From: an uncultured Flavobacteriales bacterium | Lineage (GTDB): Bacteria; Bacteroidota; Bacteroidia; Flavobacteriales_D; SKUL01 | Direction: 5' to 3' | NCBI GenBank assembly: GCA_937911795.1 | Contig: CALDPJ010000025.1 | Coordinates: 1 to 36,414 of the forward strand | Length of the DNA stretch: 36,414 nucleotides | In this document: piece after piece, positions 11,328 to 34,918 of the stretch | Layout: each line of letters opens with the position of its first letter | How positions within the stretch are numbered: the stretch's first letter is position 1 | Program-made: the position numbers and the translations under genes | The notes under the pieces: model-generated | Seen by the model: only the letters and a program-made list of their open reading frames with translations | Told to the model about the DNA's origin: nothing | The model's database searches: none

Positions 11328-13337
11328 TTAATTAGGTTCGTCTACTTTATCGACCGGAATGTAGTCAAAACTCAGTACTGCGAAGGTTGTCCGTCTGTTT
11401 TTCTGATGTGCTGCTTCTTTTTCCGCATCGGTTTTCATAGCGTTGATCTGGCTGTCGGTAATTCGAAGCTTCGATTCTCCGTAACCCCGGGCTACCATTC
11501 TTTCGGCAGGAATTCCTTTTGAAATCAGATAATTGACGCATGCCTGGGCACGTCTTTGAGAAAGGTCGAGGTTGTATTTATCTCCTCCGCGCGAATCCGT
11601 ATGCGCCTGTAGTTCGACGATAATTGTCGGGTTATCAACCAGTGTCTGATAGAGGAAATCCAGGGAGTCTTCTGAATTTACTTCTTCGTTTACCTGTAAC
11701 TCCGCCCGGTCATACGCATAACGAACTTCAGGAAATTCAATTTCGTCGGGTTTAGCAACATAGGTAATGAAGAATTCCTTTACGAATGTGGTAGATTCGG
11801 TTACTCCAACAGTGCTGATCTGATCTTTGGCAACCAGGTAATCCTGTTTGCTGACTTCCATAGAATAGGTCACTTCAGGCTTGATGTACCGGTCAGTTCC
11901 GGTTTCCTCGAAGTTGAATCCTCCGTTATTGTCTGTGCTTGCTTCGAATGATGCTCCGTCGGATCCTACCACTTTCACAGTAGCTTCGGGAATTGGAACC
12001 ATGGTTTCTTTATCATAAACATTTCCTTGCAAAGCAAAAACCAGTGGTGGCATTTTGAAACTCCAGATGTTTTCCTGCCCTGTTCCTCCGGCACGACCAG
12101 ATGTGAAAAAACCCTGATCTTCTTCACCATTGTATATAATTCCGTAATCGTGATTTACCGAATTCAACGGAGCTTTCAGATTCTGAACATTCCCCCATTT
12201 CATGTCTTCGGTTTTCTCAGCTACGAACATGTCGAGCCCACCCATACCGGGATGCCCATCAGATGCAAAATAAAGATTTCCGTTATCATGCAGAAAGGGG
12301 AACATTTCGTCATCGGCGGTATTAATTTCCGGACCAAGGTTTTGGGGAGCAGACCATTTTTTAGCTCTGCTGTCGTATGTTGTCAGCCATAGGTCACGGC
12401 CTCCCTGCCCCCCGGGGATATCACCGGCAAAAATCATCATCGATTCCTTATCATCAATTGCGGGATGTCCTACCGTAAAAACCTCTTTGCCTTCTTTAGG
12501 TTTGAGTTCGATCAGTTCCGGTTCGCCCCAGTTCTGACCAACTTTTCGCGCTGTATAAATGTCGCAGCCAAGGCTTTTGTCTTTCTCGCTCTGGCAGCGT
12601 GTAAAGTACATTTGGTTGCGCTTACCATTTAACACAGCAGCTCCTTCGTTGTGCTGGGTGTTGATGGTATTGTTCAGCGGATAGGGTTCACTCCATTTTC
12701 CTTTTTTATCGCGCTGAGAAAAATAGATATCTGAATAGTTTTGGCCTGTTCTTTCGTCAATTTGAGCACCTGCAGAACCCGGTCTGGACGACGTAAAAAA
12801 GATCATATCATTTCGCTTATCTGCCCAGGTTGGAGAAAAGTCGAAATATTGAGAATTGATCTGGACTTCGGGTTCGATCAGGTAGCGCTCCGGATTATCC
12901 ATCCATTCCTGCGCCATTTCACATTCTGCAATGGCCTGATCCACTTCCCGGGCATTGGTGGTATTCTCTTTATACTTGTTGTAATAAGTAATAGCTTCTG
13001 CGAAATTCCCTTGTTTGCGCTCAGATTCTGCTATCCAAAAATAAGCCATTGGATTGTCGTGCCTGGCTTTGAGCGCCTTGTTGTACCAAACGGCAGCTTG
13101 TTCTGTATCGAGCACCAGCCGATAACTTTCGGCTATTTGATACAGCAATCTTCCTTTTTCGGCCAGTTCTTTTTCTTTGGCATATGCTTTTTTATAGAGA
13201 TCTATGGCTTCATAATACCCTTCGTTCTCAAACATATTTTCTGCCTCTTTAATGAAGCGATCGGCGCCCTGGGCTTGTACGGTGCTATATGCAGCTATCA
13301 AGACAAGGCTCAGGAGAAGAGATTTCAAATATTTCAT
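11328..13337 (-). CDS. OmpA-family outer-membrane/peptidoglycan-associated protein with TPR and TolB-like beta-propeller regions
   Basis: It starts with a signal peptide (AAYSTVQAQ). TPR-like repeats and WD40-like/TolB-type repeats follow, then a C-terminal OmpA_C domain (ELQAHTDSRGGDKYNLDLSQRRAQACVNYL). Confidence 0.8.
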   Translation of the reverse strand: MKYLKSLLLSLVLIAAYSTVQAQGADRFIKEAENMFENEGYYEAIDLYKKAYAKEKELAEKGRLLYQIAESYRLVLDTEQAAVWYNKALKARHDNPMAYFWIAESERKQGNFAEAITYYNKYKENTTNAREVDQAIAECEMAQEWMDNPERYLIEPEVQINSQYFDFSPTWADKRNDMIFFTSSRPGSAGAQIDERTGQNYSDIYFSQRDKKGKWSEPYPLNNTINTQHNEGAAVLNGKRNQMYFTRCQSEKDKSLGCDIYTARKVGQNWGEPELIELKPKEGKEVFTVGHPAIDDKESMMIFAGDIPGGQGGRDLWLTTYDSRAKKWSAPQNLGPEINTADDEMFPFLHDNGNLYFASDGHPGMGGLDMFVAEKTEDMKWGNVQNLKAPLNSVNHDYGIIYNGEEDQGFFTSGRAGGTGQENIWSFKMPPLVFALQGNVYDKETMVPIPEATVKVVGSDGASFEASTDNNGGFNFEETGTDRYIKPEVTYSMEVSKQDYLVAKDQISTVGVTESTTFVKEFFITYVAKPDEIEFPEVRYAYDRAELQVNEEVNSEDSLDFLYQTLVDNPTIIVELQAHTDSRGGDKYNLDLSQRRAQACVNYLISKGIPAERMVARGYGESKLRITDSQINAMKTDAEKEAAHQKNRRTTFAVLSFDYIPVDKVDEPN

Positions 13338-20193: not shown

Positions 20194-20280
20194 GATTTTT
20201 ATGAACATAAATACCAATGGTACCAAAACAAGCAAATTTACTTGTCTGACGAAAGAGACCCATCGTCCTGAAAACTCTAA

Positions 20281-20288
20281 TAGCTTTG
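20281..20288 (+). promoter_or_regulatory. Sigma-A type -7 box (TAGCTTTG) for the FG-GAP cargo gene
   Basis: A perfect TAnnTTTG octamer lies 33 nt upstream of the ATG at 20321. This argues against the ORF-track start at 20201. Confidence 0.4.
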
Positions 20289-20320
20289 GAATGTCTACCT
20301 TTAACCACTTATATATGGTC

Positions 20321-22624
20321 ATGAAATTTCCGATTCCTTTTCTGTTGGTGTTTCTGTTAAACACCCCGATTCTCCTCGCTCAGTTTTATGCAACACACAG
20401 CAATGACATTCCGGTTTATCATAATGGCAGTGCAATGGCCAACCCATGGGCCGGAGGAATCAATGCCGGCCAGATTTCTACGATTGATGTCAATCAGGAT
20501 GGTTTGGAGGATGTATTCATATTCGACCGGGCCGGCAACAAACCGATGATTTTTCTGAACAACAACAGCAACGATCCCAATTCTTTTGAATACAGTTTTG
20601 AATACAGTCAGCAGTTTCCGTCGATGCGAAACTGGGCGCTGTTGCGCGATTTTAATTGTGACGGCAAAAAAGACATTTTCACCTATAATGGAATCGGTGG
20701 ATTCAGGATTTACGAGAACATTTCTGCCACCGGTGCTGAATTGGAATTCACGGAAATCGAAAGCAATCTACAGTCGCTGTACAATTTCCCCTCCTCCTCC
20801 TATTACTCCAATATTTTCATCAGTTCGGTGGATATTCCGGCGGTGGATGATCTGGATGGCGACGGCGATCTCGATATAATTGTCTACTCCGTATCGGGCG
20901 TGCTGGTAGAGTATCACAAAAATTTTTCGGTAGAAGAAACCGGATCCTGTGATTCATTGATGTTTGTCCTCGGAAACCGATGCTACGGATTCTTTTCTGA
21001 AAGCGCCTTCGATAATTCGATCTCACTGCACGATGAAGCCATGCACAACGCATTGTGTCCGACGGGTTACAATGTCGCCGACCCCACTCCCATCATTGAG
21101 CGGCCGGATGATATAGAATACATTGAAACTACCACAGGCCCCAGACATTCAGGAACCACCATTCTGACAATTGAAATGACCCAGCAGTTGCCGAAGGAAA
21201 TTGTCCTGGGCGATATCAGTCATTATAATTTAACCGCCCTTACCAATTCGAGTACTGCTGAAGGAATGGATACAATAATTGCTTTCGATCCTGCATTTCC
21301 TTCGAACCACACCAATTCCGAGGCTGTTGATTTAATTGCTTTTCCAGCCTCCTATTACGAAGACATGAACAACGATGGAATCCGCGATTTAATTGTCAGC
21401 CCAAATAACGAATGGGCTTCGGAGAACACATCCAGTGTGTGGTATTATCAAAACCAAGGTTTAGACGATCAACCGGATTTTGTGTTGCAGCAAAAAGATC
21501 TTTTTCAACAGGAAATGATCGATGTTGGTGAAGGAGCAACGGCTTTTTTTATGGATTACAATGCAGACGGACTGCAGGATCTCATCGTCGGCAACAAAGG
21601 ATACTTCGTCAGTCCGGGTGTATATGAATCGAAGCTCGCTTTGTATGAAAATACCGGCTCGGCACAGAACCCGGAATTTACTTTTATTACAGATGATTTC
21701 GCAGATCTGGCGGCATTGAATCTCGGCCAGGCACTGCATCCCGCTTTCGGCGACATCGATAATGACGGAGATACAGATATGTTAATAGGAACATCATCGG
21801 GTAGGATTTACCGCTTCAACAATATCGCCGGACCGGGAAGTGAGGTGAGCTTTGTTCCTGCCGAAGATTCCATTCTGAAGGATGTGGATGGAAACGAAGT
21901 GGATCCCGGGCAATTCTCTACTCCGCAACTTATTGACCTTAACGGTAATGGATTATTGGATCTGGTAATGGGAGAGCGGAATGGAAAAATTCATCTTTAC
22001 GAAAACGTCGGAACAGCAGAGAACCCGTCTTTTGAACTGACCAATGATTTTCTCGGTAATGTTGAAACTGCAGAAGGTTTTTCAACCACAGGCTATAGCG
22101 TTATTCAGTTTTTCGATATGGATGGAGAGCGATATTTGATGACTGGTGCCGAATCGGGCAAAATACGATTGTACAGCAACATCACCAACAATCTTGATGG
22201 AGCTTTTAACCTGGAAGAAAACGAATTGTTCGGGCTGCGCAACGGCATCCGGAGTACGGTGGTCGTAACCGACATTAACAATGATGAGTTTCCGGATCTG
22301 TTCACCGGAAATTTTAGTGGAGGATTATTGTTTTTTAAGGGGGGCGAACCGACAGCAGTCGAATCGTATTTCAGTTCCGAGCCCACTTTTAATGTTTTCC
22401 CGAATCCTGCTGCTTCAGATATATCCGTATCAGTAAACCAAAAGATTTCAGGCAAAAAATACAGGCTCATTCTGTATAATGCTTTGGGAAAAATTATTCT
22501 CGAAAAAACTTTAGACGGCTCCACGAATAATATTGCTGTGGATCATCTTTCAGCAGGCATTTATATGGTACAACTGAAGGATGATGAAATACCGCTTGGA
22601 ATAAGACGGCTTGTGATTCGATAA
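20321..22624 (+). CDS. FG-GAP/VCBS repeat protein with T9SS type A C-terminal sorting domain
   Basis: Signal peptide MKFPIPFLLVFLLNTPILLAQ. Repeated FG-GAP-like calcium-binding motifs follow (DVNQDGLEDVF, DLDGDGDLDII, DMNNDGIRDLI, DYNADGLQDLI, DIDNDGDTDML, DLNGNGLLDLV, DINNDEFPDLF). The C-terminus FNVFPNPAASDISV...AGIYMVQLKDD...RLVIR is the Por_Secre_tail pattern. Confidence 0.8.
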   Translation: MKFPIPFLLVFLLNTPILLAQFYATHSNDIPVYHNGSAMANPWAGGINAGQISTIDVNQDGLEDVFIFDRAGNKPMIFLNNNSNDPNSFEYSFEYSQQFPSMRNWALLRDFNCDGKKDIFTYNGIGGFRIYENISATGAELEFTEIESNLQSLYNFPSSSYYSNIFISSVDIPAVDDLDGDGDLDIIVYSVSGVLVEYHKNFSVEETGSCDSLMFVLGNRCYGFFSESAFDNSISLHDEAMHNALCPTGYNVADPTPIIERPDDIEYIETTTGPRHSGTTILTIEMTQQLPKEIVLGDISHYNLTALTNSSTAEGMDTIIAFDPAFPSNHTNSEAVDLIAFPASYYEDMNNDGIRDLIVSPNNEWASENTSSVWYYQNQGLDDQPDFVLQQKDLFQQEMIDVGEGATAFFMDYNADGLQDLIVGNKGYFVSPGVYESKLALYENTGSAQNPEFTFITDDFADLAALNLGQALHPAFGDIDNDGDTDMLIGTSSGRIYRFNNIAGPGSEVSFVPAEDSILKDVDGNEVDPGQFSTPQLIDLNGNGLLDLVMGERNGKIHLYENVGTAENPSFELTNDFLGNVETAEGFSTTGYSVIQFFDMDGERYLMTGAESGKIRLYSNITNNLDGAFNLEENELFGLRNGIRSTVVVTDINNDEFPDLFTGNFSGGLLFFKGGEPTAVESYFSSEPTFNVFPNPAASDISVSVNQKISGKKYRLILYNALGKIILEKTLDGSTNNIAVDHLSAGIYMVQLKDDEIPLGIRRLVIR

Positions 22625-23804: not shown

Positions 23805-23829
23805 GCAACCAACTCAGCAATTTCGCGTC
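23805..23829 (+). promoter_or_regulatory. ECF-type promoter GCAAC-N16-CGTC (putative autoregulatory promoter of the sigma/anti-sigma operon)
   Basis: GCAAC is at 23805-23809, followed by a 16-nt spacer and CGTC at 23826-23829. The same architecture occurs at 25819-25843 and 30716-30740. The -10 element ends 6 nt before the ATG. Confidence 0.5.
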
Positions 23830-23835
23830 TTTCGG

Positions 23836-24450
23836 ATGCAGGATAAAGAAAACATAGAACTACAAAAACTACAGAATCTTGTAAAAGGCTGTATTCAAGA
23901 TGACAGAAAATGTCAGCGCCTTTTATATGAAATGTTCTACGGAAAGATGATGGGTGTTTGCTTGCGGTACGCAAACGATGCTGATCAGGCGAAGGACATT
24001 CTGCAGGATGGATTCATTAAAGTATTTCGCAATCTTGAGCGATATAATTTTAGCGGATCTTTTGAAGGGTGGATCCGAAGAATAATGGTCAATACGGCCA
24101 TTGATTATTTTAGGAAACACCGTAGTTCGCACGTTCTTTTATTACGGGATGAACAAGCTATTGAAGAATTTGAAGAAGATTCTGAAGAAGCCGAATTTGA
24201 ATTGAATCCGATTGATGAGCCGGAGTTTACCATGGAGGATGTAATTGCAGCCATGCAACAACTTTCACCGGCTTATCGGGCAGTATTTAACCTATTTGTG
24301 ATGGAAAACAGATCGCATCAGGATATTGCCGAGGAACTCAATATCAGCGTTGGCACCTCCAAATCCAATTTCTCAAAAGCAAAAGCGAACATCCGTAAAA
24401 TGCTGTTAAACAAAACAATAAGCAAAACTAACGCAACCGATAAGAAATGA
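23836..24450 (+). CDS. ECF (sigma-70 family group 4) RNA polymerase sigma factor
   Basis: The 204-aa product has region 2 (DADQAKDILQDGFIKVFRNLERYNFSGSFEGWIRRIMVNTAIDYFRK) and region 4 (LSPAYRAVFNLFVMENRSHQDIAEELNISVGTSKSNFSKAKANIRKML). Confidence 0.9.
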   Translation: MQDKENIELQKLQNLVKGCIQDDRKCQRLLYEMFYGKMMGVCLRYANDADQAKDILQDGFIKVFRNLERYNFSGSFEGWIRRIMVNTAIDYFRKHRSSHVLLLRDEQAIEEFEEDSEEAEFELNPIDEPEFTMEDVIAAMQQLSPAYRAVFNLFVMENRSHQDIAEELNISVGTSKSNFSKAKANIRKMLLNKTISKTNATDKK

Positions 24451-25691
24451 GTGACAACCAACAACAATTCGAGGACCTGATCCGGCGAACGCTTGAGGAT
24501 TTCGAGGTTGATTTCAATCCGTGTCATTGGCAGGAAATGGAATCCCGGCTCAACCTGCTCGGTCAGGGCGTTGCGGTTTCTATGAACACCTTTTACGGAG
24601 CCTTTGTTGCCGCCGGAATTTTTATGGCCGGCCTTATTTATTTCGGACTACCAGATGATCATACAGGTGGTTTTGCTGAGCAAGAACAAATTACAGAATT
24701 ACAAGCTCCGGGTAATCCAACCGGCTCTGAAACAATAGTTGCAGGTGATTCACCTGAAAAGGAAACGGTAAGTACAGATACATTTATCATGGATGTACCA
24801 CATAATTCCATCGAGAAATTTGTAGAATCACCAGGTATTTCGAATAGCGTTGATACGGATAACGAAAAGGCAAATTCCGAAAGCCCAAAAGTTGAATACG
24901 GAGAGATGACGGTCAAAAAAATCAGGTCCAGTGTTTCTCAAGGCTGTGAAGGAGCGCCGATCACGTTCTCGACTTCTGGCAGTGAATCTGAAGGAAATTT
25001 CCTATGGAACTTTGGCGATGGCTATTTCTCCAACAACCAGAACCCTGTTCACGTCTTTGATGCACCAGGCATTTTTGATGTTTCTTTGCTGGTTACCCCA
25101 CTAACAGGTGGAAAACTCACCCCGATGACGATCGAAGATCAGATAAAAATCAATCCACGACCCAAAGCTTCCTTTGACTACACGTATAAACAGAATCCTC
25201 TCGATATACCCCAGGTCAAGTTTGAGAGTCACTCCAAAAACGTAGATCAGGTAATGTGGGTGGTTAATGGGGAAGTATTCTCTGAGGAAAACGCACCGGT
25301 TCAGAATTTCACCAAAAAAGGAACCTACGATGTACAACTGGTGGCCATCAATGAATACGGTTGTGCAGATACCACCAGCAGAAAAGTGACCATTAAAGAA
25401 GATTACAACCTGTTGTCACCGTCATCCTTTTCGCCGGACGGAGACCACCGCGAAGACACGTTTATACCGGGAGCTCTCAAATTGATAGAAGGAACTTTCG
25501 TGATGCGTGTAATGGATCCGAGTACTAATATGGTAATTTTCGAAACGACAGAAGCAAACAAACCCTGGGACGGTACGATTGCCGGTACCACGGTAAAAGC
25601 TTCGGCAGGAGATTATCAATGGGAAGCGACGATAGAATATACCAACGGAAGAACCGATCATTTTACCGGGCAGATTAATCTCACCAAATAA
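24447..25691 (+). CDS. Putative membrane-anchored anti-sigma factor with two PKD-like domains and a degenerate T9SS type B (CHU_C-like) C-terminal domain
   Basis: An ATGA start/stop overlap couples it to the sigma gene. It has a ~46-aa cytoplasmic N-terminus and one TM helix (FYGAFVAAGIFMAGLIYFGL). A low-complexity linker follows, then the PKD motif FLWNFGDGYFSNNQNPVHVFDAPGIFDVSL and a second Ig/PKD-like module. The C-terminal tail PSSFSPDGDHREDTFIP...WDGT... parallels the CTDs of both adhesins. Confidence 0.6.
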   Translation: MSDNQQQFEDLIRRTLEDFEVDFNPCHWQEMESRLNLLGQGVAVSMNTFYGAFVAAGIFMAGLIYFGLPDDHTGGFAEQEQITELQAPGNPTGSETIVAGDSPEKETVSTDTFIMDVPHNSIEKFVESPGISNSVDTDNEKANSESPKVEYGEMTVKKIRSSVSQGCEGAPITFSTSGSESEGNFLWNFGDGYFSNNQNPVHVFDAPGIFDVSLLVTPLTGGKLTPMTIEDQIKINPRPKASFDYTYKQNPLDIPQVKFESHSKNVDQVMWVVNGEVFSEENAPVQNFTKKGTYDVQLVAINEYGCADTTSRKVTIKEDYNLLSPSSFSPDGDHREDTFIPGALKLIEGTFVMRVMDPSTNMVIFETTEANKPWDGTIAGTTVKASAGDYQWEATIEYTNGRTDHFTGQINLTK

Positions 25692-25718
25692 TATTAACCC
25701 TTACTGAGTAAACATCGA

Positions 25719-25752
25719 AAGGCGCTCTACAAGGAGCGCTTTTCTTTTTTTT
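25719..25752 (+). terminator. Rho-independent terminator of the sigma/anti-sigma operon
   Basis: The stem GCGCTC-tacaag-GAGCGC (25722-25739) is followed by TTTTCTTTTTTTTG. Confidence 0.7.
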
Positions 25753-25818
25753 GTCTAATTGAATTCCTTTGAAATAACACTTCTCGCTAATGGATTCTTG
25801 TTGCTCACCTTCAAATGT

Positions 25819-25843
25819 GCAACCACTGCTCAGGATTTCCGTC
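25819..25843 (+). promoter_or_regulatory. ECF-type promoter GCAAC-N16-CGTC upstream of adhesin 1
   Basis: GCAAC is at 25819-25823, followed by a 16-nt spacer and CGTC at 25840-25843. The spacer also shares CTCAG and ATTTC with the sigma-gene promoter. Confidence 0.5.
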
Positions 25844-25924: not shown

Positions 25925-28900
25925 GTGATTCGATTCATATTACTTTTCGTAATTCTCACCTTTTATTCTGGCAATATTCTGTCGGCACAATGTGCCCAGG
26001 GATCCTATACCTTGAATCCGCCACCGGTAAACGGACAATATGAATCGGGGCAAACAGTTCAAATATGTCTGCAATTTAATTATTCACAAACCAGCGTAGA
26101 CTGGGTACATGGAATCGTACCGATTATTCCTGAAGGTTGGGATGTATCGTCTATAAATGTTACACCGCCACCTTCTTGCAGCGGCAGTGGGACATGGGGT
26201 TGGTATCAAAGTGTAACCAGCTCAGCAAATGGAAACACTTATGGGCCGGGATTATTTTACGACCAATATAATGATGGTAATCCTGGAAATAACTTTGGTG
26301 ATAACCTATCGTATTGCGGTTACAATTTATCCTTTTGCATGACAATAACTACCGCCGACTGCAACGGTGATGACCTGGATGGTGCCAATCTGAATCTTCA
26401 GTTTCAAATTTTGGGCGATAATTTTTCTGGTAGCTGGGGTTCTGGCGGAAACAGTTGTCCCCCTGGTCAAAATACCATAATGCCGGGCCCTGGCCAGAAT
26501 ACTACCCTTAGCTGTTGCTCGGGAGAAGAGGCTTTCCTGGAAATTTGCAGTTCATCTCCCAATCAAATTTTATTCAACTCTTTTTCATCATCTCCGGCCG
26601 GAGGTACCTGGACCAATCCATCGGGAGGTGCATTCAACGGAACATTTATTCCCGGCACCAGCCCGGATGGCATCTATTCGTATAGTTTTGACGACGGTGA
26701 TTGCGCTGCGGTATCCACGGTAGAAGTCACTACCATTCCTGAACCCGATGCAGGAACCGGTGAAAACATTACCATATGCGAAGGTGCCGATGCTTTCAAT
26801 TTGGGAGATCAAATAATCGGCGGCGATGCGGGCGGCACATGGACCGGACCGGGAAATATTCCTGTTTCTGATGTATTCACTCCGGGAGTCTCAGCACCGG
26901 GGTTATACACCTATACTGTAGGAGACGGTATTGATTGTCCAACCAGTCAGACGGTAGTGAACATTAGTGTTGAACCGAATCCGTTCGCAGGAGACGATGG
27001 TTCGCTCACGGTTTGCGAAAGCGACCCGCAGATCAATCTGTTCAATTTCCTGATGAACGGACCCGAAAGTGGTGGTACCTGGACCGATCCATCCGGCGGA
27101 TCACACGACGGATTATTGTCGCCGTCAACCGATGAACCCGGAAACTACACTTATTCTATCGGAGATCCTCCATGCAGCTCATCGGCCACCGTTTCGGTTA
27201 CCATTGTTGAACTTCCTTATGCCGGTCAGGACATTTCAATATCGCTTTGTCCGGATGACGCGCCGGTAGATTTGTTCAATGTAATTCCTGGCGCCAACGC
27301 CGGCGGATTTTGGGCTGATCCGGATAACGCCGGCTTTAGCGGAATATTTTCGCCTGGATCAGATCAACCCGGAGATTATGTTTATCAGATCGGTGGAGCA
27401 GCCTGCAACGACGTAGCCGTTGTTACCGTTGTAATTCCCGATCTGCCAACCGGATTCATCAGCGCAGATGCTACCTATTGTGAAGGCAGCAATTTCCCGA
27501 TCACATTTAATCTCACCGGAAACGGACCCTTTGATATTGAGTACGGCATCAACGGAAATGATTATACTTTAAATGGTATTTCTGACGGACATTCTGAAAT
27601 GGTCAGTTCAACCGGTGATGCAGAAATTGAATTGATTTCCATCACCGGTTCAGATCCCGGAGCCTGCCCGAACAGCGGAAACACAATTGAGGTAGAAATG
27701 ATCCCTACTCCGTCAGCGCAGATCGTCGGTGGTGGAGGTATCTGTGAGGGTGCCGATGGAACCTTGACTTTTGAATTGACCGGAAGTGGTCCATTCGACA
27801 TTGTTTATACCGATGGATCTCAGAATTTTTCACTAAACGGAATTTCTAACGGTCACGTGGAAACCGTGAATCCTACCGAAAACCCCACCTATACGCTTAT
27901 TAGTGTGGCCGACAATTCTCTTTCCTCCTGTGATGGCAACGTCAGCGGGAGTGCAAGCTTTGCGGTAAACGAAGCGCCAGCCGGTAGCATTTCGGGAAGT
28001 GCCAATATTTGTATTGGAGAATCCACAGAATTAACTTTTGAACTGGAAGGCACCGGTCCGTTTGATGTTGTGTACACCGACGGAGCCAATAACTTCAGTT
28101 TGACGGGAATCAACGATGGACACACCATTTCAGTTTCCCCTCAGTTTCTGTCATTTTATGAGCTGGTATCGGTCACCAGCCAGGGAAATCCAAACTGTCC
28201 GGGCATTACGAGCGGAAATGTAATAATTACGGTTTCTGTGCCTCCGGTGTACTACAACCTAAATGTTACCTGCAACAATGTGAATGAAGCCTATACGGTT
28301 TCCTTTCACATCAACGGTGGAGACCCCGGCAGCTATCAGGTCGAAGGAGATTCCGGTGAAATAACCGGCAATGTATTTACGAGCGATGAAATTCCGAGTG
28401 GCAGCTCCTACACCTTTCTTCTGGATGATGGAAATGGTTGCGGACCTGTAGAGATTTCGGGAGATCACACCTGTGATTGCACTACAAGTGCCGGCACCAT
28501 GCAGGTGGAAGATTTGGTAGTGTGTTCATCAGAACTGGCCATTGCAACCCACAATAACGATGAAATTCTTGACCCCAATGATATATTGGTGTTTCTGCTC
28601 ACTGATTCACCATATTACTCGACAAGCACCATATTTATTGAAAATGATGAGCCGGAGTTCGAATTCCAGGATGATTTATTGGAGCTAAACACAACTTATT
28701 ATATTACAGGAGTTGCCAGTAATGACGCTGGAGGAACCTATGAGATTGGAGACCCATGCTGGTCTGTCACTTCCCAGGCAACTGTTACGTTTATTGAAAG
28801 TCCCACAGCCGGAATTTCCGGTTCTGGTGCAATTTGTCCGGGTGAAGTCGCAAGTCTTGACATCGCACTAAACGGATCAGCGCCCTGGACCGTGGAATAT

Positions 28901-30628
28901 GCAGTGGATGGAATTTCAACCGGCAATTTTATTTCCAACAACAACAATTATACGCTCGACGTCGACCAGGGCGGAAGCTATACATTACTGAATGTCACCG
29001 ATGCCTTATGCGCCGGAACAACGTCCGGTGAAGTAGTTGTAACAGAATTTGAAGTACCGACAGCAACGATATCCGGTGGAGGAAATATATGTGCCGGCAG
29101 CGGTGACGGACCGGAAGTGACGCTCACCGGCTCTGCACCATGGACGATCACATACACGGTTGATGGACAAAATCCGGAAACCATTATCATCAATAATTCT
29201 CCCCACACTATTGAAGCAACAACGTCGGGTAACTATGTAATTACCGGGGTAAGTGACAACAATTGCACAGGCGAAGGATTGGGAACAGCTGCGGTGACTA
29301 TCGTCGAACCTCCTACTGCCGGAGTAAGTGGTGGTGGTCAGATTTGCGACGGTGACACCGGTGAAATCACCTTCAACGGAACCGGAAACGGAGACGTTCA
29401 GATAATGTACGCCATAAATGGAGTTACGGAAGGCACCGTAAATCTTATCAATGGATCTGCAACACTCCAAACCAGCGAACCCGGCACCTACAGCATTGTA
29501 CAGGTTGAAGATGATTTCTGTAGCGGTAGCGGTAATGGCACTACGGCAGAACTCATCGTAAATCCTATTCCTACTGCGGACATAAATCTTAATCCTTCGA
29601 CATTATGCGAAGGAGATTCGGCTTTGCTTAGTATCACCTTCACCGGCAACGGGCCCTTCGGTGTAGTGTACAGCATTGGTGGAGAAATGATCATTGCAGA
29701 CAACACTTCCAATATTCATCAATATGTTTTCCCGGAAAACGGACAGGAATTTGCGTTGATTTCGGTATCCGACAATTCTAATCCTTCCTGCGGACAAAAC
29801 CTGGTCGAATCGGTAACAGCTCAGGTATTGATTACTCCCGAAGCTCCGGTTCTCACCGATATTTTCCGTTGCAACAACGACACCTTCCCTCAAATTGGTG
29901 TAGAACCATTGCCGAACCTTAATTATTCGTGGTCTCCCCAGGCGGGCTTGAGCAATCCGAATATTTCCAATCCTGTATTAAACCTGGAAAACAACACGGA
30001 TCAGGAACAAACTTATACCTTTATCCTGACTGCTCATAACGGGATCTGCGGTGTACAGAGCAGTATGGAAGTGACCATCAATCCCGGACCTCAGGTGGAC
30101 TTTAGTTATAATCCGAAACCTGTTTCAACCGAAGCGACTACTGTAAATTTCCTGAACCACACGCCGGGCATCAACGATTATGAGTGGTTGGTAAATGAAA
30201 TCAGTGTTTCTACGAACACCAATATACACTATACTTTTCCCGATGGTATTGAGGGGAATTATAATGTTACATTGATTGCAACTGATACTGAAACCGGCTG
30301 CACCAACCAGCACGCACAACTTGTGGAAGTAAAGGGTGAGCTGATGGTTTACGTACCCAATGCCTTCACTCCCGATGGTGACGGGATCAATGAATTGTTT
30401 GGCCCCGTGGTTAGAAACCATCTGGAGGGTCAATATGATTTTTCAATTTTCAACCGGCAAGGGGAACTCGTATTCAATTCCAGTTCTCCAGATTTGAAAT
30501 GGGATGGCAGCGAATCTGGTCAGGATTATTTTGCGAAGGATGGTGTTTATATCTGGCTGTTGAAAATCGGAGACATCTACAGCTCCGAAATCAGGGAATA
30601 TCAAGGAACTGTGACAATTGTGCGGTAA
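25925..30628 (+). CDS. Giant modular cell-surface protein (1567 aa) with T9SS type B sorting domain (gliding-motility-associated C-terminal domain)
   Basis: GTG start and signal peptide MIRFILLFVILTFYSGNILSAQ. A Cys-rich N-terminal domain is followed by 4 + 7 Ig-like repeat modules and a PKD-like module. The C-terminus LMVYVPNAFTPDGDGINELF...LKWDGSESGQ...VYIWLLK is the CHU_C / type B CTD pattern. Confidence 0.85.
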   Translation: MIRFILLFVILTFYSGNILSAQCAQGSYTLNPPPVNGQYESGQTVQICLQFNYSQTSVDWVHGIVPIIPEGWDVSSINVTPPPSCSGSGTWGWYQSVTSSANGNTYGPGLFYDQYNDGNPGNNFGDNLSYCGYNLSFCMTITTADCNGDDLDGANLNLQFQILGDNFSGSWGSGGNSCPPGQNTIMPGPGQNTTLSCCSGEEAFLEICSSSPNQILFNSFSSSPAGGTWTNPSGGAFNGTFIPGTSPDGIYSYSFDDGDCAAVSTVEVTTIPEPDAGTGENITICEGADAFNLGDQIIGGDAGGTWTGPGNIPVSDVFTPGVSAPGLYTYTVGDGIDCPTSQTVVNISVEPNPFAGDDGSLTVCESDPQINLFNFLMNGPESGGTWTDPSGGSHDGLLSPSTDEPGNYTYSIGDPPCSSSATVSVTIVELPYAGQDISISLCPDDAPVDLFNVIPGANAGGFWADPDNAGFSGIFSPGSDQPGDYVYQIGGAACNDVAVVTVVIPDLPTGFISADATYCEGSNFPITFNLTGNGPFDIEYGINGNDYTLNGISDGHSEMVSSTGDAEIELISITGSDPGACPNSGNTIEVEMIPTPSAQIVGGGGICEGADGTLTFELTGSGPFDIVYTDGSQNFSLNGISNGHVETVNPTENPTYTLISVADNSLSSCDGNVSGSASFAVNEAPAGSISGSANICIGESTELTFELEGTGPFDVVYTDGANNFSLTGINDGHTISVSPQFLSFYELVSVTSQGNPNCPGITSGNVIITVSVPPVYYNLNVTCNNVNEAYTVSFHINGGDPGSYQVEGDSGEITGNVFTSDEIPSGSSYTFLLDDGNGCGPVEISGDHTCDCTTSAGTMQVEDLVVCSSELAIATHNNDEILDPNDILVFLLTDSPYYSTSTIFIENDEPEFEFQDDLLELNTTYYITGVASNDAGGTYEIGDPCWSVTSQATVTFIESPTAGISGSGAICPGEVASLDIALNGSAPWTVEYAVDGISTGNFISNNNNYTLDVDQGGSYTLLNVTDALCAGTTSGEVVVTEFEVPTATISGGGNICAGSGDGPEVTLTGSAPWTITYTVDGQNPETIIINNSPHTIEATTSGNYVITGVSDNNCTGEGLGTAAVTIVEPPTAGVSGGGQICDGDTGEITFNGTGNGDVQIMYAINGVTEGTVNLINGSATLQTSEPGTYSIVQVEDDFCSGSGNGTTAELIVNPIPTADINLNPSTLCEGDSALLSITFTGNGPFGVVYSIGGEMIIADNTSNIHQYVFPENGQEFALISVSDNSNPSCGQNLVESVTAQVLITPEAPVLTDIFRCNNDTFPQIGVEPLPNLNYSWSPQAGLSNPNISNPVLNLENNTDQEQTYTFILTAHNGICGVQSSMEVTINPGPQVDFSYNPKPVSTEATTVNFLNHTPGINDYEWLVNEISVSTNTNIHYTFPDGIEGNYNVTLIATDTETGCTNQHAQLVEVKGELMVYVPNAFTPDGDGINELFGPVVRNHLEGQYDFSIFNRQGELVFNSSSPDLKWDGSESGQDYFAKDGVYIWLLKIGDIYSSEIREYQGTVTIVR
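26510..27439 (+). repeat. Four tandem ~77-aa coding repeats (GGTWT-type Ig-like modules) inside adhesin 1
   Basis: The repeated pattern is P-x-(D/F)AG-x-(D/N)-x5-C-...-GG(T/F)W(T/A)-x-P-...-F(T/I/S)PG-...-G-x-Y-x-Y-...-C. The DNA copies are diverged, with short shared stretches such as GGTACCTGGACCnATCCATC. Confidence 0.75.
27446..28240 (+). repeat. Three tandem ~88-aa coding repeats (ICxG...LTFxLTGxGPFD(I/V)xY-type modules) inside adhesin 1
   Basis: The modules start at PTGFISADATYCEG, PTPSAQIVGGGGICEG and APAGSISGSANICIG. Each contains G(N/S/T)GPFD(I/V)xY and NG(I)xDGH. Confidence 0.75.
28799..29833 (+). repeat. Four further tandem ~86-aa repeats of the same module family, separated from the first three by a unique ~185-aa insert
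   Basis: The modules start at SPTAGISGSGAICPG, VPTATISGGGNICAG, PPTAGVSGGGQICDG and PIPTADINLNPSTLCEG. They carry the GSAPWT(V/I)xY / GNGPFGVVY cores. Confidence 0.75.
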
Positions 30629-30715: not shown

Positions 30716-30740
30716 GCAACATTAAATTTATATCGCCGTC
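30716..30740 (+). promoter_or_regulatory. ECF-type promoter GCAAC-N16-CGTC upstream of the small ORF / adhesin 2 unit
   Basis: GCAAC is at 30716-30720, followed by a 16-nt spacer and CGTC at 30737-30740, 27 nt before the ATG at 30767. Confidence 0.5.
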
Positions 30741-30766: not shown

Positions 30767-31186
30767 ATGCACGTTTTACTCAAACTTCTACTATCACTGT
30801 TTCTCAGTTTTTCTTTCTGTCCATTACTAAACGCTCAGGATGCGCTGATTGATAGATTCGGTTCAGAGGCCATCAATTCCATTCAGGGCACAGAAAAGTT
30901 GGCCATTCTGGAATTCCAGAATTTGCATGGTTATGCGGTGCAGGATCTGAATGGCCTAAAGGATATCTCTGAATATCCGGATGCACTCGAAATTCAGGCC
31001 GTCAACGGAAATGGACCATTGCTAAGCGAAACCTCACTAACATCAGGCAATTTTGAGCTTTTCTCTTATTCTTTTCCTGTAAGTGGAACTAAAAACAATT
31101 ATTACCGAATTGGTAATACGGGGAGGTTGCTGATAATCTACAGCACAAATAATGTTAGAAAATTATATAATCAACAGGATAATTAA
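30767..31186 (+). CDS. Small secreted hypothetical protein (139 aa)
   Basis: It has the signal peptide MHVLLKLLLSLFLSFSFCPLLNAQ and no recognisable family motifs. The gap to adhesin 2 is 51 nt with no terminator, so the two are probably co-transcribed. Confidence 0.55.
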   Translation: MHVLLKLLLSLFLSFSFCPLLNAQDALIDRFGSEAINSIQGTEKLAILEFQNLHGYAVQDLNGLKDISEYPDALEIQAVNGNGPLLSETSLTSGNFELFSYSFPVSGTKNNYYRIGNTGRLLIIYSTNNVRKLYNQQDN

Positions 31187-31237: not shown

Positions 31238-34200
31238 ATGAAAAAATCCACTCTAGTTCATATCGCTTTTATCTTTATTGCGCTATTTATTTTTACACCA
31301 ATCTTTGGTCAACAACAGATAAATATGCAGACCGGATATTTTGAACAATGTTCCGGCGGCTTCCTCGATAGCGGTGGCGGTGGCGGTGCATATCAGAATA
31401 ATGAAAATTTTACGCTAACAATCTGCCCTGATAATCCCGGGGATGTAATTGGTATTGATTTTCTCACATTCACCCTTGATCCAACAAATACGGCATCCGG
31501 CAATAACAATAATCAGGATCGGTTGATAATTTATGACGGTAATAGTACAGCAGCGGCATCGATGGGTACGTTCACCGGAAATTCACTGCAAGGAATATTT
31601 GTTTCTGCATCGCCACTTAATACTTCCGGCTGTTTAACAATACGATTTATTTCAAATGATGTAGGCACGGGTAACTGGGCTGGAACAATTACTTGTGAAA
31701 CCCCGTGCGACCGACCAACAGCAGTTGGGACAGACAACGCTCCGGCTAATCGCCGTATTTGCATTGGAGAAGAAGTAACTTTCGACGGATCCGGCTCAAC
31801 AGCTGCGCCTGGATTTAACATTGACACCTATTTGTGGGATTTTGGTGATGGTACCACTGCCGACTCTCCGGTGGTCACACATTCCTGGAATGAACCCGGG
31901 GAATATCTGGTAGAATTGTATCTGGTAGATGACAACGGGTGTTCCAGTACGAATCAAATTAGTTTGCAAATAATGGTAGAGACGCTTCCTGACTGGGATC
32001 CGTTTGTAGGAGACGAAACTATATGTTTAGGCCAGACCATTAATTGGGACATAGATCCGAACGAATTTGAGGTAACCTGGATTGGGGCTGAACCGACTGT
32101 ATCTGTTTCGATAGAAGATGGTCTGGCTGACGTTGTGGGGCAATGCTATGAATTTCCTTTGGTGATTAGTGGTTTTGGTCCGGGTCAGACGCTTGATGAT
32201 GTATACTCCCTGCTGTCCATAGATCTGGGAATATATCATACTTTTCTGTTTGATCTTCTCATTCAGATCACCTGCCCATCCGGGCAAACGGTAGTTTTGC
32301 ATCAGCAAATGCAGCAGCCCAATGGCCCGGATGTGTGGGCGAACGGAACAGATTTTGGGATGCCCGGAAACATGGAATGCTGGAATTACAGTTGGACACC
32401 TCAAGCCACACAAACCATTTCCCAAATTGCGACACAGGCTGGAAATGATCCTTTGCCAGTGGATGACTATATGGCACTGCAACCATTATCGGATTTGGTA
32501 GGATGCGATCTGAACGGAACATGGACCATTAGTGTTTGTGATCTCTGGGGCGGTGATTCAGGCTACCTGTGCGACTGGGGATTGTCCATAGATCCTTCAA
32601 TTATCCCAGATGTAACTGAATTCACAACAACTATTGGACAAGAAAGTGACAGTTCTTATTGGGCGGGACCTTCATTTGGAGAAGTCTCGGCAGATGGAAA
32701 TTCAATCTCGATTGTACCCGACGCAGTTGGAGAATTTGAATTTACCTACACCATTATAAACAATCATGGCTGTACACACGACTCTACCGTAACAATTACT
32801 GTAGTCCCTGGTCCCGAAGCAGATGCCGGTGACGATCTCGTTATTTGCGAAGACTCGCTTCAACTAAATGGGTCGGTGGCAGGAACTCCTCCTCCACCAC
32901 CAAATTGCGAGTATGTTTTGGATATGGTTGATACATTCGGTGATGGATGGAATGGGTTTTCTGTTACTATTATTCAGGATGGTATTGTTGTCGGTACCTA
33001 TACCATTCCTTCTGGAGGGACATTAAATACTGTATCAATTCCTCTGAATCATGGCTCGGACATACAAATAAATACGAGCAGCGGCAACTGGGATAGTGAA
33101 GTCGCTTATTATTTGTACAACCCTGCCGGGGAGGAAGTTTTTTCTGACGAAGGCACGAATACTTCAGGTACACCGATTCAGATCGGCAACAACATATGGA
33201 GCGGAGTAGTCGATTGTCAGCCTGGAACTCCGGATTATGTTTTTGAATGGAGTCCGGTAGATGGGTTGTCAGATCCGAATATCCAGAACCCGATGGTGAT
33301 GGTAAACCAGAATACGACTTATACAATGACTGTCTGGATTGACGGTTCCCCAGAATGTGCAACCACTGACGAAGTGGAGGTTACCATTCCACCCGAAGCC
33401 GATCCGGGCCAGGATAACGAACTCACGCTGTGCTACAATTCGCCTACATTTAACCTACTGGACTCTCTTCTCGGTAATCCAACGGATGCCGGAGAATGGA
33501 CCGACGAGGGCGGCAATGTAGTGGGATCAACCTTTTCTCCTGCTGACCATGCTGACGGCGGCACCTTCTCTTTTACTTATACCGTGACGTTTGGCCCTTG
33601 CGTAAAATCTGCAGAACTCATTATCACAGTCCTGGAAGCGGGCCATGAAGATTGTTGTCAGACTTCCGCGGATGCTGGTCCCGATGGTATTGCCTGTGAC
33701 CTCAATTGGGAACTCAGCGCCGGTCCTGTAGTTGGAACCGGATCCTGGAGCGGACCTCCGGAGGTGACATTCGACAACATCAACGACCCAAATACAACGG
33801 TAACGGCTCAATCTCCGGGAGGAGTTATTGAATTGTTCTGGACCGATTCCAACGGTCTGCTTTGTGAGGAAACAGATATGGTGCAGGTTGTGTTTATGGA
33901 TCCTGTTGAAGTCGAATTCCTGACTATTCCAGCAACATGTCCGGACACCTGTGATGCTATCGTGATGGCTCAACCCTCCGGCGGACTTGGTGAATTCACT
34001 TATAACTGGAATGCCGGACTGGCAGGCGCTACACCCGACGAAAGAATTTCCCTGTGTCCCGGAGAAGTAACTGTTGAAATCGAAGATGAATACGGATGTC
34101 AGACATCTCTTGCCACACAGGTTACTGAATCGCCTGCTCCGGCTATCAATGCGATTAATGTAACGGATGTATCCTGCAATGGGATGTGCGATGGAAGCAT

Positions 34201-34918
34201 TGTTATCTCAGCACCCGATGCCGTGAGCTATAGTTTTGACGCAGGAAATACATTCGGTACCAGCCATATGCTCGACAGTCTTTGTGCCGGTTCTTTCGGT
34301 ATCGAAATTCGAAATGAATTAAACTGCCCGAATTTCCAAACGGTAACGGTGACTGAACCGCCAAAACTCAAGGCTGAATTCAGTATGAACCCCTCACCTG
34401 TTGACTGGACCAATACCACTGTTCAGTTCAACAACTTGTCTTACCCCGGTCCTTTTACCAGCACTTACTGGGTTTTTGACACGTTGAATTTTCTGGGAAC
34501 ATCCACTGAACAACAACCTTCTTTTACATTTCCAAATACCGACGCAGGAATTTACCCGGTGTCGTTGTGTGTGGAGAATGAAGCCGGTTGTACAGCCTGT
34601 ACTTCCTATGATCTGGTCGTTAATAAAACACTCTCGCTGTTTGTTCCGAATAGTTTTACCCCCAACGAAGATGGTATCAATGACCTGTTTAAAGCATACC
34701 TGAGTACAGAGCATTACAGCAACTACCGCATGCGCATATTTAACCGTTATGGAGAGCTGGTGTATGAGTCAAATGATCCGGAAGTTGGCTGGAACGGCGG
34801 AGAAGATTCCGGCACCTATTATGCCCGCGACGAAGTTTATGTAGTTGAGATTCAAGTGACGGATGATATTACTAATGAAGTTATTGAACACACCGGCCAC
34901 TTAACAATACTTCGATAA
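31238..34918 (+). CDS. Giant modular cell-surface protein (1226 aa): CUB-like + PKD + proprotein-convertase P-domain + GDGWNG module + SprB repeats + T9SS type B sorting domain
   Basis: Signal peptide, then a CUB-like pattern (CSGGF...TLTICPDNPGDVIGIDFLTF...DRLIIYDG...GTFTG...TIRFISND...GNWAGTITC). PKD motif: YLWDFGDGTTADSPVVTHSWNEPGEYLVEL. P-domain: IYHTFLFDLLIQITCPSGQTVVLH...LNGTWTISVCDLWGGDSGYLCDWGLSI. SprB-like repeats: CPDTCDAIV...GEFTYNWN and CNGMCDGSI. CTD: LSLFVPNSFTPNEDGINDLF...VGWNGGEDSG. Confidence 0.85.
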   Translation: MKKSTLVHIAFIFIALFIFTPIFGQQQINMQTGYFEQCSGGFLDSGGGGGAYQNNENFTLTICPDNPGDVIGIDFLTFTLDPTNTASGNNNNQDRLIIYDGNSTAAASMGTFTGNSLQGIFVSASPLNTSGCLTIRFISNDVGTGNWAGTITCETPCDRPTAVGTDNAPANRRICIGEEVTFDGSGSTAAPGFNIDTYLWDFGDGTTADSPVVTHSWNEPGEYLVELYLVDDNGCSSTNQISLQIMVETLPDWDPFVGDETICLGQTINWDIDPNEFEVTWIGAEPTVSVSIEDGLADVVGQCYEFPLVISGFGPGQTLDDVYSLLSIDLGIYHTFLFDLLIQITCPSGQTVVLHQQMQQPNGPDVWANGTDFGMPGNMECWNYSWTPQATQTISQIATQAGNDPLPVDDYMALQPLSDLVGCDLNGTWTISVCDLWGGDSGYLCDWGLSIDPSIIPDVTEFTTTIGQESDSSYWAGPSFGEVSADGNSISIVPDAVGEFEFTYTIINNHGCTHDSTVTITVVPGPEADAGDDLVICEDSLQLNGSVAGTPPPPPNCEYVLDMVDTFGDGWNGFSVTIIQDGIVVGTYTIPSGGTLNTVSIPLNHGSDIQINTSSGNWDSEVAYYLYNPAGEEVFSDEGTNTSGTPIQIGNNIWSGVVDCQPGTPDYVFEWSPVDGLSDPNIQNPMVMVNQNTTYTMTVWIDGSPECATTDEVEVTIPPEADPGQDNELTLCYNSPTFNLLDSLLGNPTDAGEWTDEGGNVVGSTFSPADHADGGTFSFTYTVTFGPCVKSAELIITVLEAGHEDCCQTSADAGPDGIACDLNWELSAGPVVGTGSWSGPPEVTFDNINDPNTTVTAQSPGGVIELFWTDSNGLLCEETDMVQVVFMDPVEVEFLTIPATCPDTCDAIVMAQPSGGLGEFTYNWNAGLAGATPDERISLCPGEVTVEIEDEYGCQTSLATQVTESPAPAINAINVTDVSCNGMCDGSIVISAPDAVSYSFDAGNTFGTSHMLDSLCAGSFGIEIRNELNCPNFQTVTVTEPPKLKAEFSMNPSPVDWTNTTVQFNNLSYPGPFTSTYWVFDTLNFLGTSTEQQPSFTFPNTDAGIYPVSLCVENEAGCTACTSYDLVVNKTLSLFVPNSFTPNEDGINDLFKAYLSTEHYSNYRMRIFNRYGELVYESNDPEVGWNGGEDSGTYYARDEVYVVEIQVTDDITNEVIEHTGHLTILR

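Follow-up and report, generated by a model that had tools for sequence, protein, structure and literature searches.

Why should a gene that overlaps the gene of an extracytoplasmic function (ECF) sigma factor, and whose product starts like a membrane-bound anti-sigma factor, end in a domain that resembles a protein secretion signal? This question is raised by a 36,414-nt stretch of DNA from an uncultured Flavobacteriales bacterium (contig CALDPJ010000025.1 of assembly GCA_937911795.1; the window, throughout, is this whole stretch), in which an ECF sigma factor gene is followed by a gene, here called X, for a single-pass membrane protein whose C-terminal domain (CTD) resembles the type B sorting domains of the secretion system of type IX (T9SS), and further downstream by two large adhesins bearing such domains. 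Taking together the architecture of X, its homologies, the gene linkage and a promoter-like motif, all obtained here, we moderately favor a reading in which X belongs to the Reo/Dma1 (ECF21) type of anti-sigma factors, is coupled to the type B pathway of the T9SS and controls adhesins.

The AlphaFold2 model of X, built on 22 homologues, comprises two helices (residues 3–17 and 25–40), a hydrophobic helix (45–67), a disordered stretch (67–156, with a predicted local distance difference test score, pLDDT, of about 30) and then two beta-sandwiches of the PKD type, with a third one at the C-terminus (pLDDT about 90). A first-pass annotation, made by a model from the sequence alone, had described X as a cytoplasmic segment, one transmembrane (TM) helix, a linker, two PKD/Ig-like modules and a C-terminal domain, and every one of these parts was found where it had been placed. 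The 46 residues ahead of the TM helix (the head) are acidic (net charge -6) and helical, and the family alignment displays in them a motif, FExLIRxxLExFEVxYNPxHWxEMExRL, that is conserved even at 23% overall identity; direct reading of the sequence reveals no signal peptidase site (AxA-type) after the TM helix. The spacer that follows (residues 69–160; E 13%, T 10%, S 10%, net charge -12) keeps a length of 92–115 amino acids (aa) across all 22 aligned homologues with no conservation of its sequence, as would be expected of a ruler bridging the periplasm. Neither the HxxxCxxC motif of zinc-binding anti-sigma (ZAS) proteins nor a FecR domain is present in X, whose head has a single cysteine; here the sequence and the Pfam scan agree with what the first-pass annotation had stated. 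Assignment of the head to the ZAS class, to FecR or to any other Pfam family was rejected, as residues 1–81 have no Pfam match even at E up to 10. A Foldseek search of the full model against PDB returned only generic tandem-Ig and beta-sandwich matches.

The closest relation of the head to an experimentally studied protein is to Dma1 (BT_4721) of Bacteroides thetaiotaomicron, in which a cytoplasmic N-terminal region, a TM helix and a long disordered stretch lead to an OMP_b-brl_2 barrel at the C-terminus, and residues 1–40 of which pull down the ECF21 sigma factor Das1 (BT_4720); Reo, its orthologue in Bacteroides fragilis, likewise sequesters EcfO (PMC10927553). A profile seeded with residues 1–70 of X and broadened on representative matches, from which four Dma1-like intermediates had been excluded, matches the N-terminus of Dma1 in register with 24.5 bits, compared with a maximum of 10.1 bits in 3000 shuffles. 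For the motif alone, Dma1(1–40) yields 12.9 bits, which is reached by 1 of 5000 shuffles, and Dma1(1–45) finds 67 members of the set and no reversed decoys. The narrow hidden Markov model (HMM) of the X family gave only 2.6 bits against Dma1, and the link required the broadened profile together with the shuffle and decoy controls. The first-pass annotation had considered the anti-sigma class uncharacterized, a statement now superseded by the match of the head to the sigma-binding region of Reo/Dma1 from the ECF21 system (PMC10927553). Its central proposal, that X is an anti-sigma factor, is very probably correct in view of this homology and of the adjacent sigma factor gene.

The sigma factor itself points in the same direction. 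Its open reading frame (ORF) scores 62.5 bits for Sigma70_r2, 51.9 bits for r4_2 and 97 bits for TIGR02937 in the HMM search, and the protein is 35% identical to Das1 of B. thetaiotaomicron (E 2.8e-37; the Das1/Dma1 locus was located from a published cloning primer) and 48–52% identical to sigma factors paired with Dma-like or PorP-fused proteins, vs. 24% identity to an unrelated ECF factor from the B. thetaiotaomicron locus; its ECF21 assignment is one by similarity to Das1, not by ECF-group HMMs. The ORF ends in ...AAG AAA TGA and the ATG of X lies at 24447, which gives a co-oriented ATGA overlap (24447–24450), i.e., the translational coupling already noted in the first-pass annotation. The same order is seen in all five homologue contexts, which represent three distinct neighborhoods, as well as in each sibling context checked (the 7-repeat barrel type, the PorP/SprF-fused type and the two-repeat X type). 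In a scan of metagenome loci, 62 of 80 contained an ORF bearing the head (with the CTD as well in 59 of those 62), and an ECF sigma ORF was located directly upstream of X in 59 of the 62 (gap of -31 to +32 nt from the X start); among the three loci lacking it, one has just 152 nt of upstream sequence. The homology of the short head to Dma1 is reinforced by its position, by the TM helix that follows it, by the sigma factor clade and by the gene order. The nearest named homologues of X belong to Cryomorphaceae and Flavobacteriales metagenome-assembled genomes.

Two side observations concern this pairing. In the two other sigma-less loci (L050 and L078) there is enough upstream room, yet no sigma ORF was detected by HMM, so these may be either true exceptions or errors of ORF calling or frame. 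A 221-aa protein (P0108) consists of the C-terminal part of an ECF sigma factor running into an X-like head and TM helix, and would be either a natural sigma–anti-sigma fusion, like Dma3 of B. thetaiotaomicron, or the product of a frameshift in a metagenome contig.

The head family extends far beyond proteins with the architecture of X. Searched against 1.84 billion representative proteins, the head-plus-TM profile of X retrieved 1115 proteins at E up to 1e-3. In the relatives, the head motif of about 30 residues occurs in one to eight tandem copies, always N-terminal to the TM helix (one copy in 89 proteins, two in 24, three in 28, four in 21, five in 15 and six to eight in 9), and about half of the related proteins carry two to eight of them (P0055–P0203, e.g., P0086, P0165, P0131 and P0055; locus L008, 829–3003). 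One molecule of such a multi-repeat anti-sigma factor might hold several sigma factor molecules; in the available parts of the Dma literature we met no mention of tandem motifs of this sigma-binding type. The Pfam domains of the top 100 head representatives include OMP_b-brl_2 (in 29, the barrel type, whose architecture is the one published as Dma), PKD (26) and CHU_C (17). PorP_SprF is complete in two of these proteins, which score 70.7 and 84.7 bits at a cut-off of 22.3.

The PorP/SprF-fused type belongs to a conserved three-gene operon (L016, 7426–10528; L017, 7426–10576; also the contexts of P0056 and P0057) that starts with an ECF sigma factor gene. The product of its second gene has four or five head motifs ahead of a TM helix, with a disordered spacer leading to a complete PorP/SprF barrel, and that of its third, translationally coupled gene is a lipoprotein of about 215 aa whose type B CTD is canonical. 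Fusion of an anti-sigma factor to a T9SS shuttle barrel has apparently not been described: neither a fusion with PorP/SprF nor an anti-sigma factor with a T9SS CTD was found in the literature searched, by which most subscription journals were not covered.

At the opposite end of X, profile comparisons connect the C-terminal beta-sandwich with type B sorting domains. The matches of X to TIGR04131 and to CHU_C (PF13585), both sub-threshold, span the models at full length, and a CHU_C match is found in 16 of 22 members of the X family (best E 2.8e-9). When a profile of the last ~97 residues of the family was aligned by hhalign with one made from nine bona fide type B CTDs, a set that includes both window adhesins, it gave 99.5% probability and an E-value of 1.3e-22 over 89 columns; the CTD of the window protein alone scores 42.2 bits against the latter profile, and BLASTP aligns it with the CTDs of the downstream adhesins at 29% identity over 72 aa (E 3e-10) and 24% over 95 aa. 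Positions F.P..DG, W.G, Y.W and G..L persist in proteins of the X type, as seen over 81 sequences, in which an F-M-P-x-A-L element specific to X also appears. Judged by these comparisons, the C-terminal domain of X is homologous to type B CTDs, but as a divergent subfamily. The first-pass annotation had taken the C-terminal ~95 aa for a type B CTD outright; the homology stands, as hhalign and the family matches indicate, whereas the window protein taken alone remains under the curated cut-offs. Structure-based comparison adds little, as Foldseek with the X CTD alone returned only generic beta-sandwich matches from PDB; in a sequence search of PDB a type B CTD was found in the GhpA sequence only, and the X CTD profile retrieved nothing meaningful. 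No special likeness was found between the X CTD and the small CTD lipoprotein of the PorP-fused operons, the CTDs of the lipoproteins being canonical.

The connection of the sigma–X pair with adhesins is supported by gene order and by a promoter-like motif. In 29 of 41 loci the next same-strand gene after X encodes a type B CTD protein of about 1,100–1,500 aa; in the remainder, ten or eleven are cut by a contig end, leaving the C-terminus unseen, one is split by an apparent frameshift, and L055 is the only clear exception. The partner adhesin in the metagenome loci has the PKD, P_proprotein and CHU_C architecture of the window ORF at 31238–34918 (adhesin 2), which is the conserved partner of sigma–X across the X family; in the window lineage, a giant Ig-like adhesin (adhesin 1) and a 139-aa secreted protein intervene between X and adhesin 2. 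Directly downstream of a distant X (L006) lies a PorP_SprF gene, the sole lineage with such an adjacency.

The motif GCAAC-N16-CGTC has four matches in the window vs. 0.61 expected, a number reached by none of 100 shuffles. Three of the four are intergenic and on the coding strand (Table 1), and the fourth (21464–21488, minus strand, antisense inside the FG-GAP gene) is probably due to chance. A CGT -10 box is a hallmark of ECF promoters, flavobacteria included (PMC9723704). The motif recurs just before the sigma start in six further loci (L001, L003, L005, L007, L016 and L017, the PorP-fused operons included), with an equivalent site upstream of the adhesin in L001, and before the sigma gene in 34 of 52 testable metagenome loci, compared with 4 matches elsewhere in about 1 Mb. 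In distant family members the exact motif precedes the adhesin in only 3 of 50 cases, and the gap between X and the adhesin has a median of 107 nt; this short gap devoid of a motif of its own suggests that the adhesin is there probably co-transcribed with X. In the window, the strong terminator-like hairpin after X is in keeping with separate copies of the promoter motif ahead of the adhesins. The first-pass annotation had placed the neighboring adhesins in the regulon of the sigma factor, which the shared motif and the conserved sigma–X–adhesin order render plausible.

The position of the motif relative to the sigma gene was also recorded: in several lineages CGTC ends 4–7 nt before the sigma start (window 23805–23836; L001, 9387–9418; L003, 9376–9405). 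This distance from the start codon implies a leaderless or near-leaderless sigma mRNA, and, as far as can be judged from sequence, the sigma transcript is probably leaderless and its promoter probably autoregulatory. Automatic gene calls for several of these sigma genes begin too early or too late.

Within the favored reading, the following mechanism may be proposed, in which the binding of the sigma factor, the docking of the CTD on PorP/SprF, the nature and direction of the signal and the proteolysis are steps that we infer. The 46-aa two-helix head would hold the co-translated sigma factor at the inner membrane, and the TM helix, with the length-constrained spacer of ~100 aa, would carry the two PKD domains and the CTD across the periplasm. 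Where Dma1 spans to the outer membrane in one piece, X would do so in two, reaching it indirectly by docking of its CTD on the type B branch of the T9SS, either a PorP/SprF-type shuttle barrel or the translocon. PorP/SprF proteins are outer-membrane shuttles or anchors that bind cognate type B CTDs (PMC9143113, PMC12618676), and docking of the X CTD on such a partner or on the translocon is suggested by a Rosetta-stone argument that combines the PorP/SprF-fused siblings, the L006 adjacency and the type B CTD lipoprotein of the PorP-fused operon. Once engagement of the CTD is lost or changed, regulated proteolysis of the kind proposed for Dma1 would release the sigma factor to transcribe its own operon from the near-leaderless GCAAC-N16-CGTC promoter, as well as the adjacent genes of type B CTD adhesins. 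In a more speculative extension, which we regard as possible though tentative, X would be a secretion-dependent trans-envelope tether attached via its T9SS sorting domain, once engaged by the secretion machinery, to the outer membrane or the cell surface. The integrity of this tether, or tension placed on it by the activity of the T9SS, by loading of the shuttle or by contact of the mini-adhesin end with a surface, would control the ECF sigma factor that drives type B adhesins; together with the PorP/SprF- and barrel-fused siblings, X would then belong to a Bacteroidota-wide superfamily of anti-sigma factors that span the envelope, with interchangeable outer-membrane ends and one to eight tandem sigma-binding motifs.

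Several observations weigh against the coupling of X to the type B pathway as well as against its Dma-type kinship. The CTD of the window protein scores 21.1 bits against TIGR04131 (cut-off 35; E 2.5e-4, profile positions 4–81 of 85) and 20.4 bits against CHU_C (cut-off 27). Among the 81 X-type CTDs the RWG motif is absent and FTPNGDGxND weakened, and in one clade (P0037–P0040) motif A is lost; as each of the five conserved type B motifs was required for secretion of an SprB-CTD fusion (Paillat et al., PMC12618676), the CTD of X, with these motifs degenerate, may not be a competent secretion signal. No locus-specific co-variation was detected between the CTD of X and that of the neighboring adhesin (86.4 vs. 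84.5, permutation p = 0.22). X can occur without an adjacent adhesin, as in L005, where none follows it. A PorP/SprF gene was found neither in the window (with a home-made PorP HMM of limited sensitivity) nor near X in the 62 metagenome loci (by phmmer only, likewise of limited sensitivity); some orphan CTDs are known to rely on a distant shuttle (PMC12618676). At the N-terminal end, the set behind the broadened head profile was itself selected with the head motif, and the homology of the 25-residue motif to Dma1 is statistically moderate.

The first-pass annotation had put forward a sharper form of the favored reading, in which the T9SS would take the CTD as a substrate and, X being anchored in the inner membrane, pulling or cleavage would free the sigma factor, so that adhesin transcription would report secretion capacity. 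Such a cargo-mimic sensor would agree with the homology of the X CTD to type B signals, with the genetic coupling of X to type B adhesins, with the sigma-type promoter motif at the adhesin units, with a PKD–PKD–CTD end that looks like a miniature adhesin and with the constrained length of the spacer, and it has a parallel in PorA, which still signals via its CTD when tethered to the inner membrane. Nevertheless, we consider it unlikely: motifs needed for secretion are degenerate in X (no RWG; motif A lost in P0037–P0040), the CTDs of X diverge faster than those of the adhesins (mean pairwise score 150 vs. 205) and do not track the neighboring adhesin, a stalled substrate would jam the translocon, and the siblings with plain outer-membrane protein (OMP) barrels indicate that the head–TM–spacer module works without a secretion step.

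In another reading, the PKD–PKD–CTD-like end would be only a periplasmic beta-sandwich for an envelope or periplasmic ligand or a protease, shuffled from an adhesin and making no contact with PorP/SprF or the translocon. The sub-threshold scores against the curated CTD models, the lost signature motifs, the exclusively generic beta-sandwiches returned by Foldseek and the failure to find PorP/SprF (by weak detection) across the window and almost all of the related loci are all compatible with a T9SS-independent sensor of this kind. We regard it as rather improbable, since every sibling architecture joins the same head to an outer-membrane module (an OMP or a PorP/SprF barrel), a PorP/SprF gene directly follows X in L006, the 81 X sequences keep the type B CTD positions W.G, Y.W and G..L, and the linkage of X to type B adhesins is persistent.

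That X is an ordinary secreted cargo, its hydrophobic segment being a long signal peptide or a cleaved signal anchor and its adjacency to the sigma gene incidental, is highly implausible in spite of a PKD–PKD–CTD half resembling a small T9SS substrate and of the annotation "gliding motility-associated-like protein" carried by some homologues: the 46 residues ahead of the TM helix are acidic, helical, conserved down to 23% overall identity and homologous to a sigma-binding region that is present in one to eight tandem copies in siblings, no signal peptidase site follows, the sigma gene is directly upstream in 59 of 62 loci, and the neighboring true adhesins open with ordinary signal peptides. 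The signal peptide interpretation was rejected on these properties of residues 1–46, and the first-pass annotation was right to set X apart from ordinary cargo, its N-terminus being a conserved cytoplasmic module.

The favored reading places X between systems that are already known. With the Dma family (Dma1–Das1 of B. thetaiotaomicron, Reo–EcfO of B. fragilis; PMC10927553, PMC13088901) it shares an operon with an ECF21-type sigma factor, a short N-terminal cytoplasmic region with a homologous motif (sigma-binding in Dma1), a single TM helix, a long disordered periplasmic spacer and a restriction to Bacteroidota; proteolytic release has been proposed for that family. Dma proteins, however, end in an 8-stranded outer-membrane beta-barrel (OMP_b-brl_2) and span both membranes, whereas X ends in PKD–PKD–CTD and has no barrel, and the known Dma regulons cover vesiculation, polysaccharide utilization loci and oxidative stress but not T9SS adhesins. 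Four of the five defining Dma features are thus found in X and the C-terminal barrel is missing, with no OMP_b-brl match; X is a relative of the Dma family and not a member in the strict sense. With type B T9SS substrates (SprB–SprF, Fjoh_3952–Fjoh_3951, PG1035–PorP; PMC9143113, PMC12618676) X has in common the CHU_C/TIGR04131-homologous beta-sandwich of ~95 aa, the PKD/Ig domains preceding it, a location beside type B adhesins and, in one lineage, a PorP/SprF gene that follows; it differs from them by an N-in TM anchor with a cytoplasmic head in place of a Sec signal peptide, by the absence of motif B (RWG) and a weakened motif A, by a score below cut-off and by the lack of a cognate PorP/SprF gene among those found in the window.

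Two further systems are similar in logic. In the PorA–PorXY–SigP pathway of Porphyromonas gingivalis, a T9SS CTD likewise serves as a periplasmic regulatory signal that ends in an ECF sigma factor, and PorA still signals when tethered to the inner membrane (PMC7712824, PMC12152298). PorA is, however, a normal secreted cargo, its CTD binds the histidine kinase PorY and the sigma factor is reached via a two-component system, whereas in X the CTD is within the anti-sigma polypeptide itself. In the FecA–FecR–FecI system, an event at the outer membrane is passed to a single-pass inner-membrane anti-sigma factor and on to an ECF sigma factor, with the periplasmic end of the anti-sigma factor contacting an outer-membrane barrel; X differs in having no FecR domain and no TonB-dependent transducer, in the ECF group of its sigma factor and in its predicted partner, a T9SS shuttle or translocon.

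To our knowledge, no transcriptional feedback has been described for the T9SS of environmental Bacteroidota, PorXY–SigP/PorA in Porphyromonas being the exception. If X couples an ECF sigma factor to the type B branch, it would provide a direct and genetically simple way of matching the production of adhesins or gliding proteins to the status of secretion or of the cell surface, and the arrangement described here suggests that the secretion machinery and the expression of adhesin genes are linked. It also widens the recently defined Dma class, in which the sigma-binding head, TM helix and spacer would constitute a portable cassette placed on three outer-membrane ends (plain barrel, PorP/SprF barrel and type B CTD), and offers a new testable angle on sensing and signaling by Dma proteins. 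Ready reporters are at hand in the predicted promoter motif and the conserved sigma–X–adhesin cassette.

Table 1. Features of the sigma–X locus and its putative regulon (window positions; residue numbers are those of X)
Feature	Position	Strand	Basis or remark
ECF-type promoter-like motif, GCAACC-N15-CGTC	23805..23829	+	Ends 7 nt before the sigma ATG
ECF sigma factor, 204 aa, Das1/ECF21-like clade	23836..24450	+	HMM domains, identity to Das1
Gene X, putative single-pass anti-sigma factor, 414 aa	24447..25691	+	ATGA overlap with the sigma gene
Cytoplasmic two-helix head, aa 1–46	24447..24584	+	Conserved motif, AlphaFold2, Dma1/Reo homology
Single Gly/Ala-rich TM helix, aa 45–68	24579..24650	+	AlphaFold2 helix 45–67; conserved in the family alignment
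Disordered acidic Ser/Thr/Glu-rich spacer, aa 69–160	24651..24926	+	pLDDT about 30, composition
Two PKD domains, aa 161–317	24927..25397	+	PKD_4, 62 bits in two stretches; AlphaFold2
Divergent type B T9SS CTD-like beta-sandwich, aa 318–414	25398..25688	+	Profile comparisons
Intrinsic-terminator-like hairpin with T-run, closing the sigma–X operon	25717..25754	+	12-pair stem, 6 GC pairs, TTTTTTTT tail
Promoter-like motif, second copy, GCAACC-N15-CGTC	25819..25843	+	Upstream of adhesin 1
Adhesin 1, 1567 aa: signal peptide, Ig-like repeats, type B CTD	25925..30628	+	CHU_C 47.6 bits; putative regulon member
Promoter-like motif, third copy, GCAACA-N15-CGTC	30716..30740	+	Upstream of the 139-aa ORF and adhesin 2
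Small secreted protein, 139 aa, signal peptide	30767..31186	+	No family match; conserved upstream of the P-domain adhesin
Adhesin 2, 1226 aa: signal peptide, PKD, P_proprotein, type B CTD	31238..34918	+	CHU_C 55 bits, TIGR04131 49 bits

Other genes of the window and its relatives were recorded as well. Counterparts of the 139-aa secreted protein occur in L001 (141 aa) and in L010 and L011 (139 aa), directly before an adhesin with PKD, P-domain and CHU_C. On the plus strand upstream of the sigma gene, 20201–22624 encodes a protein of FG-GAP repeats whose T9SS CTD is of type A (Por_Secre_tail); synteny of this gene with mdh, sigma and X is found in L001, L003 and L005. A 669-aa protein with TPR, CarboxypepD_reg-like and OmpA domains (11328–13337, minus strand) is reminiscent of the T9SS component PorE. 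Near the edge of the window, a 312-aa ORF (97–1035, minus strand) combines an EF-Tu-type GTP-binding domain (residues 10–182) with a FabA-like dehydratase domain (193–301); so unusual a pairing may stem from wrong joining of the ORF or from a fault in the assembly. The gene at 1991–2875 (minus strand) encodes an ordinary-looking tyrosine recombinase of the XerC/D type, with Phage_integrase and SAM-like N-terminal domains.

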